From a phage, in sequence record PZ452612.1: DNA of 64,000 nucleotides. One strand, written 5' to 3'. Below the pieces are notes generated by a model that saw nothing but the letters and a program-made list of their open reading frames with translations, was not told the origin of the DNA and made no database searches. Shown here in pieces: positions 1,542-50,657 of the stretch. The position numbers were made by a program, and so were the translations under genes. The first letter of the stretch is position 1. Every line of letters starts with the position of its first letter.

Positions 1542-3226
1542 TAGATTCGTTCCCATTGATGAGTGATATCGCCACCGATTGGACGATAAGAAACACCAGT
1601 TTCTTTATCAGTTAGTACCCATTTACCAGGATTTTTTGTAATCAGAGTAGCCGTTACAGGTTCTGCTACGTCATAACTAATAGAGCCGTCCTGAAGTACA
1701 CGGCCCATGTTACGTAATTGCTTAGTCAGAAGTTCCATACCTTTATAATATGCGGCTACCGCTTTAAGTGGATTATTCTTGAAATAACCACCTAATGCAA
1801 TCCAGATAATTGCTACAGCCAAATGATGATACTCGTTAAACGAACTCATCTTTCCATATTTGTAAACTAATGGATTGATGTTAATAGTCACATTACAAGT
1901 TGTTTCGTCAATAGTAAACTGTCCCCAGGTCGGATTAGCGTTGAATTCATCATAACCTGAAACAGCATAAAGCACTTTAGCTTCATCATACAATTTTGGC
2001 CCGTAAATCTTGGTTTCGCCAAAATATCCACGAGGGTCGATAAACTTGACTTCGCCGTTATCAGTAATCATAGTATTACTGAAGTTCGGGTCACCGTGAA
2101 TAACAGAGTACTGTCCCTGAGAACGGGTATGATAACGAATAAGATGTTCTAAAGCTTGCTTCAGCATTGGCTTCAGACGTCCAATCTTAGTGTAGTTCAC
2201 GTGTGTGATTTTACCAAATGAATCAATCAATGGCTGAATGCTTTCACAACGATCAATAACTTTCGTATAGAACTCTTTAGTGAAATCACGGCGAACAGTT
2301 TCAGGACTTACAAAATAAGTGTCTGTGCTGAATTTCAGTGCATCTAAAATTGCATCAACAATTTGTGGACGAGCAAGACTTGATTTGGATTTAATATATT
2401 CAAATGCTGGCTTACCTTTAATACGTTCCATTTCAAAATTATTTTCATTTACCGAAACTAACTGAGGAACTGAATCTGATTTCACTTTCAAATACCATGA
2501 AATCTCATCTTTTTGAAGAGCTCGACCTTGTTCGGTTAACGCGAATTTAGTTACAGTTTCTTCGCCAATTTCAACTGCATTAAAACTACGATTAAGTTCA
2601 CGAACTTCATGAGCTTTTTCAAGTTTAGGCATATCACCTAAATCAATTAGATTCATAAGCTCTGATTTATTGAATGCACTGCCGTAAAGGAATTCTACGA
2701 AATCACGTCCTTTGCAGTATTCATGAATTTCCTCATCAGTAGAACCCATGTAGAATTCCCAGTCTTTGAACTGATAAATTCCTACAACATTACCGCCTGT
2801 TGAACCTACGTTAGTGATATTTTCACCATCGAAATTATATCGACATTCATCACCCTTAACATAGATTGCGTTAACATTCCAAGACCATGAACCAAAATCA
2901 GGAATAATATCACACCAGTTAACAATTACGTTATGGCCATCTAAATCTTTGTATAATTTAGCAAGAGCATAAGCAGAACCATACGCTTCATCAACTGTAC
3001 GAATAGTCACATTGAACCCTTCTTGCTCGCAATAAGCTCGAACAGTTTCAGCAAATTTTGAATGAACTACTACAATAATTTCATCTGCGCCAAGGTCAGA
3101 ATAAATTGTATACAAATTGCTCAGAATAGTGTCTTGTTTATAGTTAACAAGAACTTTTGGAATATGATGCGTTATTGGATACAAACGAGTTGCCAGTCCA
3201 GCACCAAGAATAACAGCTTTTTTCAT
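1541..3226 (-). CDS. Bifunctional sugar-1-phosphate nucleotidyltransferase (N-terminal) / sugar kinase (C-terminal, APH/choline-kinase-like)
   Basis: N-terminus MKKAVILGAGLATRLYP matches the GxGxR loop of NTP-transferases. C-terminal half has IHGDPNFSNTMITDNGEVKFIDPRGYFG, an HGD...N...ID catalytic loop typical of phosphotransferase-fold kinases. 561 aa. Confidence 0.6.
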   Translation of the reverse strand: MKKAVILGAGLATRLYPITHHIPKVLVNYKQDTILSNLYTIYSDLGADEIIVVVHSKFAETVRAYCEQEGFNVTIRTVDEAYGSAYALAKLYKDLDGHNVIVNWCDIIPDFGSWSWNVNAIYVKGDECRYNFDGENITNVGSTGGNVVGIYQFKDWEFYMGSTDEEIHEYCKGRDFVEFLYGSAFNKSELMNLIDLGDMPKLEKAHEVRELNRSFNAVEIGEETVTKFALTEQGRALQKDEISWYLKVKSDSVPQLVSVNENNFEMERIKGKPAFEYIKSKSSLARPQIVDAILDALKFSTDTYFVSPETVRRDFTKEFYTKVIDRCESIQPLIDSFGKITHVNYTKIGRLKPMLKQALEHLIRYHTRSQGQYSVIHGDPNFSNTMITDNGEVKFIDPRGYFGETKIYGPKLYDEAKVLYAVSGYDEFNANPTWGQFTIDETTCNVTININPLVYKYGKMSSFNEYHHLAVAIIWIALGGYFKNNPLKAVAAYYKGMELLTKQLRNMGRVLQDGSISYDVAEPVTATLITKNPGKWVLTDKETGVSYRPIGGDITHQWERI

Positions 3227-18416: not shown

Positions 18417-18887
18417 TTAATCATGTTTCCACACCCCATTGGTATTCGACCAAAGTCGCTGATTATCTGATCCTCGCCACAGTTTTTTGGTCGGAAGATT
18501 TTTCTCATACTTCCCATCAATAATAACATCAACATATTTAAGCATTTCTAGTTGTTTAATATCTTCAAACTTATATCCTGTCCACAACCAAATGCTTTTA
18601 TTGGGATAAATATTTTTTACTGTTTGAACAATGCAATGAACAACATCTCTATTATCAGGATAGAGAGGGTCGCCTCCGGTTATAGTCAATCCTTCTATAT
18701 AATCATTATTCAAACATTCAATTAATTGTTCTAGTGTCTCTCCAGTGAATGGAGCACCATTTCTAGCGTTCCATGTTGATTTATTATAACACCCTTCACA
18801 TTTATGCAAACAACCTGTAACGAAAAGAACGACCCTGCAACCAGGGCCATTCACAAAATCGCAAGGATAAAATCTATCATAATTCAT
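18417..18887 (-). CDS. nrdG: Anaerobic ribonucleotide reductase activating protein NrdG (radical SAM)
   Basis: CLHKCEGCYN is a CX3CX2C radical-SAM motif; 156 aa; immediately downstream of nrdD. Confidence 0.9.
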   Translation of the reverse strand: MNYDRFYPCDFVNGPGCRVVLFVTGCLHKCEGCYNKSTWNARNGAPFTGETLEQLIECLNNDYIEGLTITGGDPLYPDNRDVVHCIVQTVKNIYPNKSIWLWTGYKFEDIKQLEMLKYVDVIIDGKYEKNLPTKKLWRGSDNQRLWSNTNGVWKHD

Positions 18888-20701
18888 TGGTGTTTAACCC
18901 TATGCATGATTTCTTTATTTTTACCGAGATTAAATCCGCGTTCGTTCGGATTTCCCAAATAACCGCATGTTCTTCTTATGGTGTTCATCTTTTTAGGATC
19001 AGTTTCTCCGCAAACTGAACAAACAAATCCGTTTTCAGTAGGAGTCATTTCATGGGTACTTCCACATGTAAAACATTTATCTACTGGCATATTAACACCA
19101 AAATAATCTAAATGTTGTGCAGCATAATCCCAGACAGCCTCAAGTCCCTTTAAATTGTTTTTCATATCTGGAAGTTCAACATAAGAAATGTGACCACCTG
19201 TCGCAATGAAATGATATGGCGCTTCACGAGAAATCTTTTCAAACGGAGTAATATTTTCTTCTACTGAAACATGGAAACTATTAGTGTACCAGCCTTTATC
19301 TGTAACATCTTTTACACTTCCATATTTTTCTGTGTCTAGTTTACAGAAACGATAACAAAGGTTTTCAGCAGGTGTAGAATACAAGCTAAAAGCAAACCCA
19401 GTTCTTTCAGTCCATTGTTTAAGAAGAGCATTCATTTTAGTTAAAATTTCTTGTCCAATATCACGTCCGACAAGAATATTCAATTCGTGGATACCAATGT
19501 ATCCTAAAGACACTGAACTTCTACCGTTTTTAAATAACTCAATTATGTCGTCATCAGGTTTAAGACGAACCCCGAATGCACCTTCTTGGTAAAGAATAGG
19601 AGCAACAGTCGCTTTAACTCCTTTTAAGGAACTAATTCTACACATCAAGGCTTCAAAACACAGATCCATACGTTCATTGAATAATTCAACAAATTTCTGT
19701 TCATTGAACTGTGTTCCAATATAAGAATCTAATGCGATACGAGGAAGATTCAGTGTTACAACACCGAGATTATTACGTCCATCAAGAATTTCATTACCAG
19801 TCGAATCTTTCCATACGCTCAAGAAACTACGGCAACCCATTGGAGAAACTGGAACTGAAGAACCAGTAATAGCTTTATTATTCTTAGCTGAAATAATATC
19901 AGGATACATTCTTTTGCTTGCGCACTCTAGAGCAAGCTGCTTAATATCATAGTTCGGATCGTCTTTATAAAGATTAACACCTTCTTCAACGAACATAACA
20001 AGCTTAGGGAAAATAGGAGTTATTCCATCACGACCAAGACCTTTAATGCGGTTTTTAAGAATTGCCTTCTGAATCATTCGTTCAGTCCAATCGGCCCCCG
20101 TACCAAATGTAATTGTTACAAAAGGCGTTTGTCCGTTTGAACTAAAGAGAGTATTTACTTCATATTCATAAGCTTGGAACGCGTCATAGACATCTTTTTC
20201 TGTTTTGGATTGAGCATAATTCAACGCATCAGCGATTTGCCATTTTTCCGCATCTTCAACATGTTTAGCGTATGTGCGTTTAACATAAGGAGAAAGAACT
20301 TTATCGACATTTGCAAATGTAGTTCCGCCATACTGATGTGAAGCAACTTGTGCAGTAATTTGTGCCATAATTGCAGTAGCAACACCAATCGATTTAGGCG
20401 TTTCAATTTGAGCATTGCCTAATTTAAATCCGTTCTCAAGCATCCCCTTTAAATCGACTAAACAACAATTAGTAAACGGAAGAGCAGGAGAATAATCAAT
20501 ATCATGCATGTGGATAATTCCACTTTCATGCGCATTCATAATAAAAGACGGGACCATATTTTTGGCAATGTGCTTAGACACAATACCAGCCATAAGGTCC
20601 CGTTGAGTTGGAAAAACACGAGAATCTTTATTAGCATTCTCGTTTAAAAGGTCTTTATTAGTTTTATGAATTAATCCTTCAATTTCTTTTTCAATTTTCA
20701 T
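18884..20701 (-). CDS. nrdD: Anaerobic ribonucleoside-triphosphate reductase NrdD
   Basis: 605 aa; C-terminal glycyl-radical motif RRTCGYLG and a C-terminal Cys cluster. Confidence 0.95.
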   Translation of the reverse strand: MKIEKEIEGLIHKTNKDLLNENANKDSRVFPTQRDLMAGIVSKHIAKNMVPSFIMNAHESGIIHMHDIDYSPALPFTNCCLVDLKGMLENGFKLGNAQIETPKSIGVATAIMAQITAQVASHQYGGTTFANVDKVLSPYVKRTYAKHVEDAEKWQIADALNYAQSKTEKDVYDAFQAYEYEVNTLFSSNGQTPFVTITFGTGADWTERMIQKAILKNRIKGLGRDGITPIFPKLVMFVEEGVNLYKDDPNYDIKQLALECASKRMYPDIISAKNNKAITGSSVPVSPMGCRSFLSVWKDSTGNEILDGRNNLGVVTLNLPRIALDSYIGTQFNEQKFVELFNERMDLCFEALMCRISSLKGVKATVAPILYQEGAFGVRLKPDDDIIELFKNGRSSVSLGYIGIHELNILVGRDIGQEILTKMNALLKQWTERTGFAFSLYSTPAENLCYRFCKLDTEKYGSVKDVTDKGWYTNSFHVSVEENITPFEKISREAPYHFIATGGHISYVELPDMKNNLKGLEAVWDYAAQHLDYFGVNMPVDKCFTCGSTHEMTPTENGFVCSVCGETDPKKMNTIRRTCGYLGNPNERGFNLGKNKEIMHRVKHQ

Positions 20702-21171
20702 TTTAAACTCTTTCTAAGCTGCTTTTTGAATGAAGCTATTAATTGTGTTTTAGTATCAGATTCATTATATTCAAATCCTCTTTGAAGCATCTCAGTCATC
20801 ATTTCCTCTTTACCTAGTCTTGAGAACTCTTTAGTTTTGTCTGGAACAAAATTAGGATGGATATTATTATCAGAATAATCTTGTTTCAAATAAGCAAGAA
20901 GAGCTTCAAGCCATTCGAGGTAATCAACGTTTTGACCTTTAAGACCAGAACGGTTGAACTTATGCTTCATTTGACCTTCTGCTGCATTGCACAGGTTACA
21001 TAGTAAACCACGAACCTTACCAGCTTTTGGCCCGTTTAATTCATGGTCGTGGTCAAGATGGTTACCTTGAACATCAGGGTCTAATTCACGGTGGCAAATA
21101 GGACACTTACCATTCTGTGCATCATAAAATTTTTGTTTTTCTTCTTTATATTTTGCGCCTGATAATAACAT
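20698..21171 (-). CDS. 49: Endonuclease VII (Holliday junction resolvase) gp49
   Basis: MLLSGAKYKEEKQKFYDAQNGKCPICHRELD...HLDHDHELNG matches T4 endo VII as recalled; 157 aa. Confidence 0.9.
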   Translation of the reverse strand: MLLSGAKYKEEKQKFYDAQNGKCPICHRELDPDVQGNHLDHDHELNGPKAGKVRGLLCNLCNAAEGQMKHKFNRSGLKGQNVDYLEWLEALLAYLKQDYSDNNIHPNFVPDKTKEFSRLGKEEMMTEMLQRGFEYNESDTKTQLIASFKKQLRKSLK

Positions 21172-21221
21172 GATAAACCCTTACCTTAAATAGATAAGGG
21201 TATTTATAATTTAGTAAACGT

Positions 21222-21389
21222 TATAAAAGTCTCGATGGAAACGCTTATACTGACGAATCATTCTTTTAGTAGGACGAGTTTCTGAAATAATTGAAGTCCT
21301 CATATTTGGATTGTTTGGGGCCCAATCATAATAAATTTCCAGGATTTTTGCCCATTTTTTCTTTCGCCATAAAATAGTTCAGTTTTCAT
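21222..21389 (-). pseudogene. Frameshifted, degenerate copy of the small basic-protein gene at 21814..21984
   Basis: Two reading frames together reproduce the paralog: MKTELFYGERKNGQKSWKF... in one frame and ...DWAPNNPNMRTSIISETRPTKRMIRQYKRF in another, versus the intact ...LLYRLLKNGKHDWYLLIKTDPNFFSGQPFTVRPTKRQLRKAKRSHRNFYREY. DNA similarity includes a shared TATAAAAGT..CGATG..TTTAGTAGGACGA stretch. Confidence 0.3.
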
Positions 21390-21398
21390 AATAAGCCC

Positions 21399-21812
21399 TT
21401 AACTTAAACGTCTTTCTAAATATTCAATGTATTCCGCGGCGGCTTGCATCAGATTACCTTCATAACCGTCATTATTTTCTTGACCGGCTAATTTAGCTAA
21501 AGCATAAGAAATACGTTCACCTTCGAATTCGCCAAGACCACCATCACAAACTACTTGGTCAATTTCTTCGAGTTCATCTATTGAATGGGATTCCCAGAAG
21601 CACCAAAGAGAAGTATCACGGTCATAGATGCAAAGTTTCTCACCTGTGTTCAACATCACTTCGATAATGCCATGGTCGCCATAACCATCTTCGGTAGTAG
21701 TACCAATTACCTTGATGATTGTTCCTTTCTTTAATTCAGGAAACTTGACTTGTAGTTCTTCATCTTCTTTAACAATCTTGAACCATTTACCGCGAGTTTC
21801 AGAAATATTCAT
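21399..21812 (-). CDS. Hypothetical protein (pin-like position)
   Basis: Track ORF 21399..21950 trimmed to the internal Met MNISETRGKWFKIV..., which abuts the upstream gene. Sits between 49 and nrdC where T4 has pin; no sequence match claimed. Confidence 0.4.
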   Translation of the reverse strand: MNISETRGKWFKIVKEDEELQVKFPELKKGTIIKVIGTTTEDGYGDHGIIEVMLNTGEKLCIYDRDTSLWCFWESHSIDELEEIDQVVCDGGLGEFEGERISYALAKLAGQENNDGYEGNLMQAAAEYIEYLERRLS

Positions 21813-21813
21813 A

Positions 21814-21984
21814 TCAATATTCTCTATAAAAGTTACGATGAGAACGTTTAGCTTTGCGAAGCTGACGTTTAGTAGGACGAACTGTAAATGGTTGTCCAGA
21901 GAAAAAATTCGGATCGGTTTTAATAAGCAAATACCAATCATGTTTGCCATTTTTTAATAAACGGTACAATAATTTAACTTGCAT
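21814..21984 (-). CDS. Small basic protein (56 aa)
   Basis: MQVKLLYRLLKNGKHDWYLLIKTDPNFFSGQPFTVRPTKRQLRKAKRSHRNFYREY; has a degenerate paralog about 600 bp downstream. Confidence 0.4.
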   Translation of the reverse strand: MQVKLLYRLLKNGKHDWYLLIKTDPNFFSGQPFTVRPTKRQLRKAKRSHRNFYREY

Positions 21985-22112
21985 AATAATCTCTTCCCAT
22001 TTCCATATCAATTAATTCATTTATTGAAGGTTCATCATAACACGTTTCTTCGTCGTTGTAAACTGTTTCGACGTCTGGCTCGACCGTCTCCCATCGAGCC
22101 GAATACCACGGT

Positions 22113-22469
22113 TTAACCGCGGAGTTTATTGATCTCTTCATAATCAACCCAGGATTCTAGCCCAGATGGCAAATCAGATTCAATTTCCCAAAGAAGCTCT
22201 TCAATGGCTTGCAGGCGATTATATTCTTCAACGGTAATGGTAACCATTGGTGCAACCGGTTCTGCCTTTTTAACAATCATATCGTTCATCAGGATGTAAA
22301 GGTCATCACGAACGACAGTGTCGTTCCAACCCCATGATTTGGCTTCATAAGCTAATGATGAAGGGAGCACATTTAAAACTTCAATAATAGTTGGAGCATC
22401 AGGACCAAGTTCATTGGCACAAACTTCGTATACATCTTGGAAATCTTTAAGATTTAATGAATATGTCAT
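22113..22469 (-). CDS. Hypothetical acidic protein
   Basis: 118 aa ORF. Confidence 0.45.
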   Translation of the reverse strand: MTYSLNLKDFQDVYEVCANELGPDAPTIIEVLNVLPSSLAYEAKSWGWNDTVVRDDLYILMNDMIVKKAEPVAPMVTITVEEYNRLQAIEELLWEIESDLPSGLESWVDYEEINKLRG

Positions 22470-22729
22470 TTAAAATATTCTCGTAGTTGGTCAAAGCCAC
22501 CGATCGAAGTTCCATCAGGAGCAAACACTTGAGGCATAGTCAATCCAACTTGTGATTCACGTCCAAGCTTAACCAGAAGCTCAGCAATTTTCTCATCATC
22601 AAAAACACCTTTTTCTGGCATAACGTTAATGAATTCGAATGGTTGTTTCTTAACAGTCAGCAATCGTTTCGCATTATCACAATAAATGCATTTATGAATA
22701 GTAGAGTCATACCCGTACACTTTAAACAT
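22466..22729 (-). CDS. nrdC: Thioredoxin/glutaredoxin NrdC
   Basis: MFKVYGYDSTIHKCIYCDNAKRLLTVKKQPFEFINVMPEKGVFDDEKIAELL... matches T4 NrdC as recalled; CIYC redox motif. Confidence 0.85.
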   Translation of the reverse strand: MFKVYGYDSTIHKCIYCDNAKRLLTVKKQPFEFINVMPEKGVFDDEKIAELLVKLGRESQVGLTMPQVFAPDGTSIGGFDQLREYFK

Positions 22730-23135
22730 TATTTTTCCTTTCATCGATTAAATATGCAACGCCAAATACAATACATGTAATAAAACCTGTGATACAGATA
22801 GAAACCAACAACACTGTACCAAAGAACCAAATCAGGTTATCTTTAGTAGTTTGTTTTATATCCATCTCACGAATTTCTATAGCTATAGTATCACCTTTAT
22901 TCAGAAGCGTATAAAACGACGGTGATACATGCCTGTCAAAAACTCGTCCTTGCTCATCTTTATAGACTGCAATAAATTCTAATTTAGAATATTTTCCTGT
23001 AGATTGACCTGAGATTAATTCCACTACCTCCACAGGAATTACTTTAGTTTCCATGTAAGTATTCTGACTGTTCCAAATGAATGGAATAATAGCAAAAACT
23101 AAAGCTGCGATAAAACAACGAAGGCTATATCTCAT
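22722..23135 (-). CDS. Membrane protein
   Basis: 137 aa with N- and C-terminal hydrophobic segments. Confidence 0.45.
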   Translation of the reverse strand: MRYSLRCFIAALVFAIIPFIWNSQNTYMETKVIPVEVVELISGQSTGKYSKLEFIAVYKDEQGRVFDRHVSPSFYTLLNKGDTIAIEIREMDIKQTTKDNLIWFFGTVLLVSICITGFITCIVFGVAYLIDERKNNV

Positions 23136-48683: not shown

Positions 48684-50657
48684 ATGGCAAACACTCCTGT
48701 AAATTATCAATTAACCCGAACAGCGAATGCTATTCCCGAGATTTTTATCGGGGGCACATTTGCCGAAATCAAACAGAACATTATCGAATGGCTCCATGGA
48801 CAGAATGAATTTCTTGACTATGATTTTGAAGGTTCACGCTTAAACGTATTGTGCGACCTTTTAGCATATAACACTCTTTACATCCAACAGTTCAGTAATA
48901 GTGCAGTGTATGAAAGTTTTATGCGCACTGCAAACTTGCGTAGCTCTGTTGTACAAGCGGCTCAAGATAACGGATATCTGCCTTCATCTAAATCAGCAGC
49001 ACAAACAGAAATTATGCTCACATGTACGGATGCGTTAAATAGAAACTATATCACCATTCCACGTGGCACTCGTTTCTTAGCATATGCTAAAGATACTTCT
49101 GTTAACCCATATAACTTTGTTTCTACTGAAGATGTCATTGTAGTTAAAGACAAAAATAACCAATATTTCCCACGTCTTAGATTAGCTCAGGGACGTATTG
49201 TTCGTACTGAATTAACATTTGATAAATTAAAACCTATCATTATTCGTGATAAGAACATTGACCGTAATTTAGTTAAGTTGTACGTTGATGGAGCAGAATG
49301 GATTAACTGGACTCGTAAGTCGATGGTTCACGCTGGTTCTACGTCAACAATCTATTATATGCGTGAAACAGTTGATGGGAACACCGAATTTTATTTTGGT
49401 GAAGGCGAAATCTCTATTAACACATCAGAAGGTGCGTTAACATCCAACTATATTGGTGGCCTTAAACCTGTTCAGGGTTCTAAAATCGTAATTGAGTATA
49501 TTTCTACTAATGGCGCAGATGCTAACGGTGCTGTAGGATTTTCTTATGCTGATACATTAGCTAATATCACGGTAATCGATATTAATGAGAACCCTAGCAA
49601 TAACCCAGACTTTGTCGGGGCCGATGGCGGCGGCGACCCTGAAGATATTGAACGTATTCGAGAATTAGGCACAATTAAACGCGAAACTCAACAACGTTGT
49701 GTAACCGCTTCCGACTATGACACATTCGTCTCTGAGCGGTTTGGTTCTATTATTCAAGCAGTTCAAACATTCACAGATTCGTCTAAACCTGGGTATGCAT
49801 ACATTGCTGCTAAGCCTAAATCTGGATTGTATTTGACTTCTGTCCAACGTGATGATATCAAAAACTATTTGAATGATTATAACTTAGGGACTATTACACC
49901 TGTTGTTATTTCGCCTGATTATTTGTTTATCAAAATGAATATCAAAGTTACGTACGCGTTGAATAAACTCCAAGAATCAGAACAATATCTTGAAGGGCAA
50001 ATTATTAATAAAATTGACCGATATTATATTGAAGATGTAGAAATTTTTAACTCATCGTTTGCAAAATCTAAAATGCTAACTTATGTCGATGATGCAGATA
50101 TTTCTATTATTGGTTCTTCAGCTACTATTCAAATGGTTCGCGAAGTACAGAACTTTTATAAAACGCCTGAGGCCGGTATTAAATACAATAATCAGATTAA
50201 AGATAGATCGATGGAATCTAATATATTCTCGTTTGATTCGCACAGACCTAATCCAGAAAATGCAAACGAAACTATTAAATACGGTGTTCGCATAGTATCT
50301 TCTGACCGTAATGACCGTGGCATAGGTCAAGTTATTATTGGTCCATTTGCAGATGGCGATGTTGTTGAAAACGAAAATATACAACCTTATACAGGTAATG
50401 ATTTTAATAAACTTACTGTTACTGACGGACGAAACAAATACTATTCAATTGGTGAGGTGAATTATCCTGCCGATTCGATTTATTGGAACATTGCTAAAAT
50501 TGACCTCACTTCAGACCGTTTTGAAGTTCAGACAATTGAACTTTATTCCGACCCTGCAGATGATATTATTTTTACAAAGGATGGTTCTTTAATCGTATTC
50601 GAAAATGACTTACGTCCTCAGTACTTAACTATAGATTTGGAGCCTATTTCACAATGA
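48684..50657 (+). CDS. 6: Baseplate wedge protein gp6
   Basis: MANTPVNYQLTRTANAIPEIFIGGTFAEIKQNIIEWL... matches T4 gp6 as recalled. Confidence 0.9.
   Translation: MANTPVNYQLTRTANAIPEIFIGGTFAEIKQNIIEWLHGQNEFLDYDFEGSRLNVLCDLLAYNTLYIQQFSNSAVYESFMRTANLRSSVVQAAQDNGYLPSSKSAAQTEIMLTCTDALNRNYITIPRGTRFLAYAKDTSVNPYNFVSTEDVIVVKDKNNQYFPRLRLAQGRIVRTELTFDKLKPIIIRDKNIDRNLVKLYVDGAEWINWTRKSMVHAGSTSTIYYMRETVDGNTEFYFGEGEISINTSEGALTSNYIGGLKPVQGSKIVIEYISTNGADANGAVGFSYADTLANITVIDINENPSNNPDFVGADGGGDPEDIERIRELGTIKRETQQRCVTASDYDTFVSERFGSIIQAVQTFTDSSKPGYAYIAAKPKSGLYLTSVQRDDIKNYLNDYNLGTITPVVISPDYLFIKMNIKVTYALNKLQESEQYLEGQIINKIDRYYIEDVEIFNSSFAKSKMLTYVDDADISIIGSSATIQMVREVQNFYKTPEAGIKYNNQIKDRSMESNIFSFDSHRPNPENANETIKYGVRIVSSDRNDRGIGQVIIGPFADGDVVENENIQPYTGNDFNKLTVTDGRNKYYSIGEVNYPADSIYWNIAKIDLTSDRFEVQTIELYSDPADDIIFTKDGSLIVFENDLRPQYLTIDLEPISQ

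Follow-up and report, generated by a model that had tools for sequence, protein, structure and literature searches.

The window analysed here, a stretch of 64,000 nucleotides (nt) from phage sequence record PZ452612.1, carries two copies of a small basic-protein gene of the DUF7279 family, one on each side of pinA, the gene for an inhibitor of the host Lon protease. From comparison with related phages it is very probable that the two are ancient paralogs around pinA, and that one of them, here called copy A, has freshly lost a single G, in what would be ordinary decay of a dispensable gene; the other, copy B, is intact. Over 1801 nt the region is 100% identical to typing phages 3, 6 and 13 of Escherichia coli O157; identity to RB69 at the locus is about 96.5%. 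On these matches we assign the window to Mosigvirus, the RB69-like T-even phages.

Copy B lies where an earlier, sequence-only reading had placed it (21814..21984), an open reading frame (ORF) of 56 residues (aa) with the ending it had described (...RPTKRQLRKAKRSHRNFYREY) and an isoelectric point (pI) of 10.8. It matches Pfam family DUF7279 (PF23945, a model of about 53 positions) with 54.5 bits over model positions 1–53, and copy A with one base restored matches the same positions with 50.7 bits, both against a gathering cut-off of 24.5; matches to the equivalent PHROG family, phrog_3272, have E-values of 6e-27 for copy B and 2e-29 for repaired copy A. An uninterrupted ORF of about 54–61 residues with W17 and the motif R-P-T-K...R..KR.HR.F is present in copy B, while copy A retains all of the invariant residues but spreads them over two frames, so that no uninterrupted ORF remains. 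Aligned end to end, the repaired copy A protein and copy B are identical at 22 of 59 residues (37%; 43.5 bits, pairwise E 3e-13), and the codon alignment gives about 58% DNA identity. Comparing the DNA with itself recovers a direct repeat of 56 nt at 73% identity between the 3′ part of copy A (21222–21277) and copy B (21825–21880), and both this repeat and the protein alignment lie above chance.

The two DNA motifs that the sequence-only reading had listed as shared both turn out to be coding sequence, corresponding to the RPTK and (N/D)FY codons respectively, and only one of them is informative by itself: the 13-mer TTTAGTAGGACGA occurs exactly twice in the window against 0.12 expected, whereas the 9-mer TATAAAAGT occurs four times against 1.5 expected and alone is not significant. 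The RPTK codons are the same in all DUF7279 family members read, which would agree with the preferred codons of these phages. On the coding strand a 9-nt stretch, ACTTTTATA, is identical at 21222–21230 in copy A and 21825–21833 in copy B. Together the alignments identify copies A and B as true paralogs, and, because only 37% of residues and about 58% of nucleotides are still identical, the duplication is judged to be ancient. The suggestion of a segmental duplication followed by decay therefore holds for the paralogy and for the frameshifted copy, not for a recent segmental event, and the decay would amount to one fresh 1-nt deletion. A third candidate copy at 50193–50240 (tblastn E 0.029) lies antisense within a 676-aa plus-strand gene and was set aside as a chance match.

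Copy B is widespread among relatives. The exact protein is present on 261 contigs, and 146 phage records match it at 80% identity or more, all of them Mosigvirus-type among the matches listed; the remaining matches are weak cross-matches to A-type genes. In the curated phage collection only two RB69 records fall below 80% coverage of copy B.

The degenerate copy, previously placed at about 21222..21389, is real and does read in two frames, although its true extent (21211–21389) begins further out at the 3′ end. Searches with tblastn return copy A as two pieces in two frames, and GenBank lists its halves as two hypothetical proteins. In the window and in typing phage 6 the coding strand reads GGGCCCC, with GGG at 21321–21323 followed by CCCC at 21317–21320, where the closest intact relatives (ATK47/48 and three contigs, L003, L016 and L029, that are metagenomic or derived from SRA) read GGGG CCCC (GGGGCCCC) in the context ATGATT GGGG CCCC AAAC. 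The comparison identifies the loss of one G from this G4 run as the event that broke copy A, the resulting frameshift truncating the protein after residue 23. With the frame restored, copy A would encode 59 residues (predicted junction peptides ...FIMIGAPNNPNMR... and ...IMIGAPNNPNMR), a protein 100% identical to that of ATK47/48 and 90% identical in amino acids to RB69ORF087c. Besides the deletion, one synonymous and no non-synonymous change distinguish copy A from that of ATK47, and among mosigviruses the ratio of non-synonymous to synonymous substitution rates (dN/dS) is 0.04–0.19, with dS up to 0.87. These ratios indicate that copy A is a genuine protein gene under purifying selection in relatives and, given that a single synonymous change separates it from ATK47, we judge the break to be very recent.

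The distribution of the split gene is correspondingly narrow. Among mosigvirus-type copy A records (at least 79% identity) the two-frame arrangement is limited to five, those of typing phages 3, 6 and 13, and the others, among the matches listed, give a one-piece match in one frame. The 29-aa and 30-aa fragment proteins likewise come only from genomes of these three typing phages, and intact copy A-type proteins of 59 residues are found on many contigs. Scans with exact patterns for the G3 and G4 forms of the site returned one already-known contig in IMG/VR and none in the JGI metagenomes.

Several observations tell against a real and recent mutation. The lesion is a 1-nt contraction of a short homopolymer; among phage records it is unique to three genomes produced in one study on a single MiSeq run; copy A bears no further damage; and homopolymer errors are clear elsewhere at the locus, the public record ECCR664 having several contractions in both copies which look like assembly errors, so that the frameshifts in the databases are not all biological. 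The three genomes could share a systematic error or a stock, and the phage could in truth carry GGGG and an intact 59-aa copy A. We regard such an error of sequencing or assembly as improbable, since high-depth Illumina MiSeq sequencing seldom miscalls a run of four bases, and since typing phages 3, 6 and 13, which agree on the shorter run, were prepared as separate MiSeq libraries and separately assembled with Velvet (PMC4429339). Furthermore, a Logan assembly of an unrelated run (P0002) contains a 29-aa ORF with the same out-of-frame end, ...IGPQTIQI, and three amino acid differences upstream of it; as this ORF is on a different allele, the GGG form appears to exist outside the typing-phage study.

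The split might instead be functional, with a full-length protein restored by programmed −1 frameshifting, or with two working halves produced by termination and reinitiation at the ATGA overlap at 21300–21303. There the TGA of the 5′ fragment shares bases with the ATG of the 3′ fragment, the native Met30, a geometry in which translation of the two could be coupled. The conserved basic helix (RPTKR..R..KR.HR.FY) lies entirely within the 3′ ORF, which also has a precomputed PF23945 match. Yet the overlap arises only as a by-product of the deletion, no Shine-Dalgarno sequence stands ahead of the internal ATG, and the predicted fold packs the helix on the sheet, the break falling after strand 2. 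Overlapping ORFs in two frames that jointly encode one conserved protein are also a feature of programmed −1 frameshifting of the dnaX, tail-chaperone G/GT and T7 gene 10 type, and the sequence-only reading had raised the matter of programmed frameshift signals. Joining the frames of copy A does need a −1 shift, but the zero frame at the join, ATT GGG CCC CAA ACA, contains no slippery X XXY YYZ heptamer. The two-frame layout is not conserved in orthologs (among the matches listed); outside the typing-phage lineage a mosigvirus-type copy A is a single ORF in every phage record, and the difference is a lineage-specific 1-nt deletion. A functional split is therefore very unlikely, and we return to copy A as a gene that has recently lost one base.

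The gene bracketed by the two copies at 21399..21812, as the sequence-only reading had described, is identified as pinA by a match to PF10465 (Inhibitor_I24) of 165.4 bits against a gathering cut-off of 27 (E 8e-49, model positions 2–136 of 136), by a match to phrog_2167 (E 1e-51) and by its annotation as PinA in NC_041863 and RB69. The match covers the family model almost end to end, so we regard the product as full-length PinA, for which inhibition of Lon is predicted. In T4, KIT03 (Tequatrovirus) and RB69 pin adjoins gene 49, and in Bp7 (Dhakavirus) it adjoins a DUF7279 gene. Directly downstream of pin both KIT03 and Bp7 have a DUF7279 gene of 50–60% identity to copy A, which in KIT03 stands between pin and gene 49. 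Since a DUF7279 gene is found there in KIT03 and next to pin in Bp7, the interval between pinA and gene 49 is evidently the ancestral and widespread position of copy A. Contig L008, and the remnants that deletion has left in NHEP29 and T4, support this placement. By the same comparisons pinA itself is judged to be at its ancestral position and not an insertion, as the sequence-only reading had wondered. A PinA-based scan of IMG/VR yielded six loci only.

What the two copies do appear to have allowed in relatives is the loss of pinA. In phages phiE142, Shf125875 and ST0, and in several SRA and genome assemblies, pinA is missing, and a single DUF7279 gene of 56 residues immediately precedes gene 49. 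This gene is a hybrid that follows copy B through ...CGT AAC TTT TAT A and then copy A, ...AC GTT TAC TAA, with the DNA downstream of it, so that the body of B and the tail of A are joined in frame and the protein ends ...NFYNVY. The crossover falls within the 9-nt identity ACTTTTATA, which is the same site as the shared motif TATAAAAGT. The 86-nt hybrid junction is present at full length in 33 of 135 matching phage records. ST0 and JS09 are classified as one species, and JS09 carries pinA and the two copies. The gene order pin, copy A-type gene, gene 49 in KIT03, outside Mosigvirus, and the presence of only three copy A codons in the hybrid lead us to infer, short of proof, that the hybrids arose by deletion and not by insertion.

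The sequence-only reading had also considered the footprint of a small mobile cassette, in which pinA and one repeat would be mobile and the copies would be terminal repeats or a target duplication. Direct repeats do bracket pinA, the gene varies within one species (present in JS09, absent from ST0), the breakpoint falls exactly in the repeats, and copy B and pinA show a nucleotide diversity of 1.1% against 3–8% for their neighbours, in a biased sample. Nevertheless, pinA is found at the same locus in other genera of the Tevenvirinae, and the supposed repeats are full-length, separately conserved protein genes with 58% DNA identity. No transposase, integrase or homing endonuclease was found, pinA being the sole gene between the repeats, no inverted repeats bracket the pinA unit, and apart from the coding homology no terminal repeats were seen. 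Ordinary phage recombination between short identical stretches explains the pattern fully; only loss is documented, and gain would be a simple homologous exchange. We consider a mobile cassette highly improbable. What the intuition did anticipate is that the paralogs can serve as direct repeats, recombining at TATAAAAGT with the loss of pinA.

Mean pairwise nucleotide differences across the locus (window 20698–22469 compared with L002, L003, L013, L014, L016, L017, L021, L022, L029 and L031) are 1.1% for copy B, 1.1% for pinA, 7.9% for copy A, 5.0% for the 49.1-like gene and 3.5% for gene 49. As the sample is biased, most of the loci having been chosen for an identical PinA, these values are only a hint that copy B and pinA might be exchanged as a unit.

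Deletion by recombination is one of several ways in which the locus varies. Among phages with exactly the window's PinA or gp49 protein, some have both copies intact and others have copy A frameshifted as in the window. Copy A is cleanly deleted in L018–L020, L026, L028, L030, L034, p000v, FP43, TH12, Mizar and others, where 35 nt separate pin from gene 49 and the flanks join at the near-repeat TAAGTTA/TAAATTA; a 91-nt query across this junction was unusable for counts, as two-piece matches were joined into one place. In NHEP29 the deletion of copy A is partial and spares about 35 nt at the 3′ end. Copy B has its own unstable site, an A tract that is A6 in the window, A7 in RB69 (L002), L013 and L029, and A5 in L019 and ECCR664 (L024). 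The tract is a frameshift hot spot in relatives, some cases of which may be assembly errors, and its frameshift frequency is inflated here because the sample over-represents odd variants, unusual gene content being displayed separately. In L031 the stop of copy B is lost, giving 61 residues, and in L003 a T-run of copy A has one extra T; four database clusters (P0046, P0047, P0049 and P0050) hold truncated or frameshifted DUF7279 members. RB69 is the mirror image of the window, its copy A (RB69ORF087c, 59 residues) being intact and its copy B having A7 instead of A6; the annotated copy B ortholog, RB69ORF089c, is a truncated call of 38 residues found on no other contig. At least one intact copy is kept in all mosigviruses examined except L019, a metagenome assembly.

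Such variation is reminiscent of the hyperplastic regions of T4-type phages, with their deletions at short-homology junctions (here TAAGTTA/TAAATTA, ACTTTTATA and CTTGAAA), their small ORFs present or absent in near-identical phages and their frameshifts (here in G4, A6 and T6 runs). It differs from them in that the repeats here are paralogous genes and that the outcome is an in-frame hybrid without the anti-host gene pinA. It is conceivable, but in our view unlikely, that the DUF7279 pair is a switch, providing repeat handles by which Mosigvirus populations drop pinA, or regain it through exchange with relatives, and contingency tracts (G4 and A6) that toggle the paralogs according to host; the 33 hybrids among 135 records, the frameshifts that recur at the same tracts on different alleles and the near-constant retention of one intact copy are compatible with the idea.

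Loss by deletion has also left a trace in T4. The interval between pin and gene 49 in T4 resembles that of the window in its order (nrdC ... 49.1, pin, 49, nrdD), in a pinA about 50% identical and in a conserved gene 49 hairpin. It is unlike the window in having no DUF7279 gene and in encoding a PinA of 161 residues instead of 137. The end of T4 PinA, ...SDRMIQQYKRLHQMFYNT / ...ISFSDRMIQQYKRLHQMFYNT, matches the end of the KIT03 DUF7279 protein, ...KKMIRQYKRLHRMFYNT / ...RPTKKMIRQYKRLHRMFYNT, and alignment of the DNA shows that a deletion in T4 took out everything between the end of pin and the last ~17 codons of the small gene. The alignments thus identify the last 16–17 residues of T4 PinA (RMIQQYKRLHQMFYNT; L012, NC_000866 3898–3957, minus strand) as a remnant of a DUF7279 gene, derived from its 3′ end. 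IMG/VR contigs L004–L007 also have no DUF7279 gene, and the one that was aligned, L004, has the same fusion. A further contig, L008 (IMGVR_UViG_2974787500_000001, about 2900–3200), contains a fused T4-like pin tail, a repeated pin 3′ end and a complete DUF7279 gene, an arrangement suggestive of a partial duplication in tandem, with CTTGAAA as the microhomology at the join.

The family to which the two copies belong is narrow: 5.8 billion proteins yielded 19 clusters, and 1.84 billion representatives yielded 8 matches, some spurious. From these searches DUF7279 is judged to be confined to T-even-type phages; Merlin and S16 carry more remote look-alikes. AlphaFold2, run with a family alignment of 22 sequences, gave a mean predicted local distance difference test (pLDDT) score of 82.6 and a fold of three strands (residues 2–9, 15–24 and 27–33) followed by a helix (39–55). 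The proteins have a pI of 10.5–10.8 with 13–14 Lys and Arg residues, and W17 and, in the helix, the motif RPTK..R..KR.HR.F are invariant. Searching the PDB by sequence gave only spurious weak matches and Foldseek against the PDB gave nothing; PADLOC and NCBIfam had no matches for copies A and B or the adjacent small ORFs. We found no literature on 'DUF7279', and that on PinA is silent on the flanking ORFs. T4 has kept pin only and the hybrid phages DUF7279 only, and as each has been lost without the other the two are not obligate partners. With low confidence, we suggest that DUF7279 (~7 kDa), which might be made together with pinA, is an accessory protein of host takeover or anti-defence whose basic helix binds either nucleic acid or an acidic protein of the host.

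Every gene at the locus is on the minus strand in a tightly packed string (Table 1), the 5′ end of copy B overlapping the 3′ end of the 49.1-like gene and its stop lying 1 nt ahead of the pinA ATG.

Table 1 Features of the pinA locus in the window, and hybrid genes of relatives; genes of the window are given in transcription order, with parts of a gene below it.
Feature	Coordinates	Strand	Remarks
nrdC	22466-22744	-	first in transcription order
118-aa ORF	22113-22469	-	after nrdC
49.1-like ORF	21974-22147	-	after 118-aa ORF
Copy B, intact DUF7279 gene, 56 aa	21814-21984	-	ORF list, PF23945, phrog_3272
A6 tract in copy B, codons 10-12	21950..21955	-	in frame in window
pinA, host Lon protease inhibitor (predicted), 137 aa	21399-21812	-	PF10465, phrog_2167
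Copy A, split DUF7279 gene/pseudogene, RB69ORF087c ortholog	21211-21389	-	translations, tblastn
Copy A, 29-aa ORF (5′ fragment) MKTELFYGERKNGQKSWKFIMIGPQTIQI	21300-21389	-	FDG79_gp210; predicted strands 1-2, then 6 out-of-frame residues
Copy A, 30-aa ORF (3′ fragment) MRTSIISETRPTKRMIRQYKRFHRDFYNVY	21211-21303	-	FDG79_gp209; begins at native internal Met30
Gene 49 (endonuclease VII)	20698-21171	-	after copy A
nrdD	18884-20701	-	last listed in transcription order
B/A hybrid gene, phiE142	L033 991-1161		hybrids also in L025, L032
B/A hybrid gene, Shf125875	L035 1187-1357
B/A hybrid gene, ST0	L036 1187-1357

The surrounding genes show some variation of their own. The 118-aa ORF is one gene in the window and most relatives, but the RB69 reference has it in two parts, RB69ORF092c and RB69ORF091c (L002 2916–3273); its residues 64–118 match phrog_3402 (E 1e-30), which carries the label 'antitoxin from a toxin-antitoxin system'. 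Several phages with an identical PinA have a 98-aa 49.3-like gene (PF26871) between nrdC and the 118-aa ORF (L016–L021 529–825). It is missing from the window (at about 22466), a further presence/absence polymorphism, and accounts for the ATK47 match being ~316 nt longer. The frame of pinA is open upstream through copy B to an ATG at 21950, giving a 183-aa ORF (21399–21950, minus strand), an extension that looks accidental because homology to PinA begins only at the annotated ATG (21812).

Downstream of copy A, the stretch 21177–21208 of the window (minus strand) contains a conserved hairpin of 10 bp (−12.9 kcal/mol, z −2.4) that spans the ribosome-binding region for gene 49. A T4 late-promoter consensus, TATAAATA, stands at 21201–21208, just upstream of the hairpin and right after the copy A stop, and the whole hairpin and late-promoter region is invariant from T4 to the window phage. 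The arrangement agrees with the known control of gene 49 in T4 by a hairpin and a late promoter. The scan for promoters and terminators was uninformative, with 10 sigma-70-like sites against 7.7 expected and no terminators, and an Rfam scan of 20600–22600 returned only sub-threshold noise.

The history that we propose for the locus would begin with an ancient duplication, giving two DUF7279 paralogs around pinA in the order 49.1-like gene, B, pinA, A, gene 49. Copy A would then have lost one G in the lineage to which typing phages 3, 6 and 13 belong, a real and very recent loss of function that would be tolerated because paralog B is intact. Copy A would accordingly be a conditionally dispensable accessory gene, and its counterparts in relatives would have been lost repeatedly, by clean or partial deletion, by the pin fusion of T4 and by homopolymer frameshifts. 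The same two genes would act as direct repeats for the recombination that removes pinA.

The frameshifted copy would in itself be routine microevolution, already in GenBank as two tiny 'hypothetical' ORFs. The comparison allows these annotations to be corrected, FDG79_gp209 and FDG79_gp210 being read as halves of one DUF7279 gene and RB69ORF089c as a truncated call of the other paralog. Recombination between A and B would explain the absence of pinA from about a quarter of matching Mosigvirus records, and a caution follows for T4, where the last ~17 residues of the well-studied PinA would stem from another gene. The recurrent loss of family members, the deletion of pinA by recombination between paralogs and the relic in the T4 PinA tail should be of modest interest to T4 specialists. 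For the phages themselves, the pattern would mark DUF7279 and pinA as conditionally useful host-interaction genes and as candidates for anti-defence screens.

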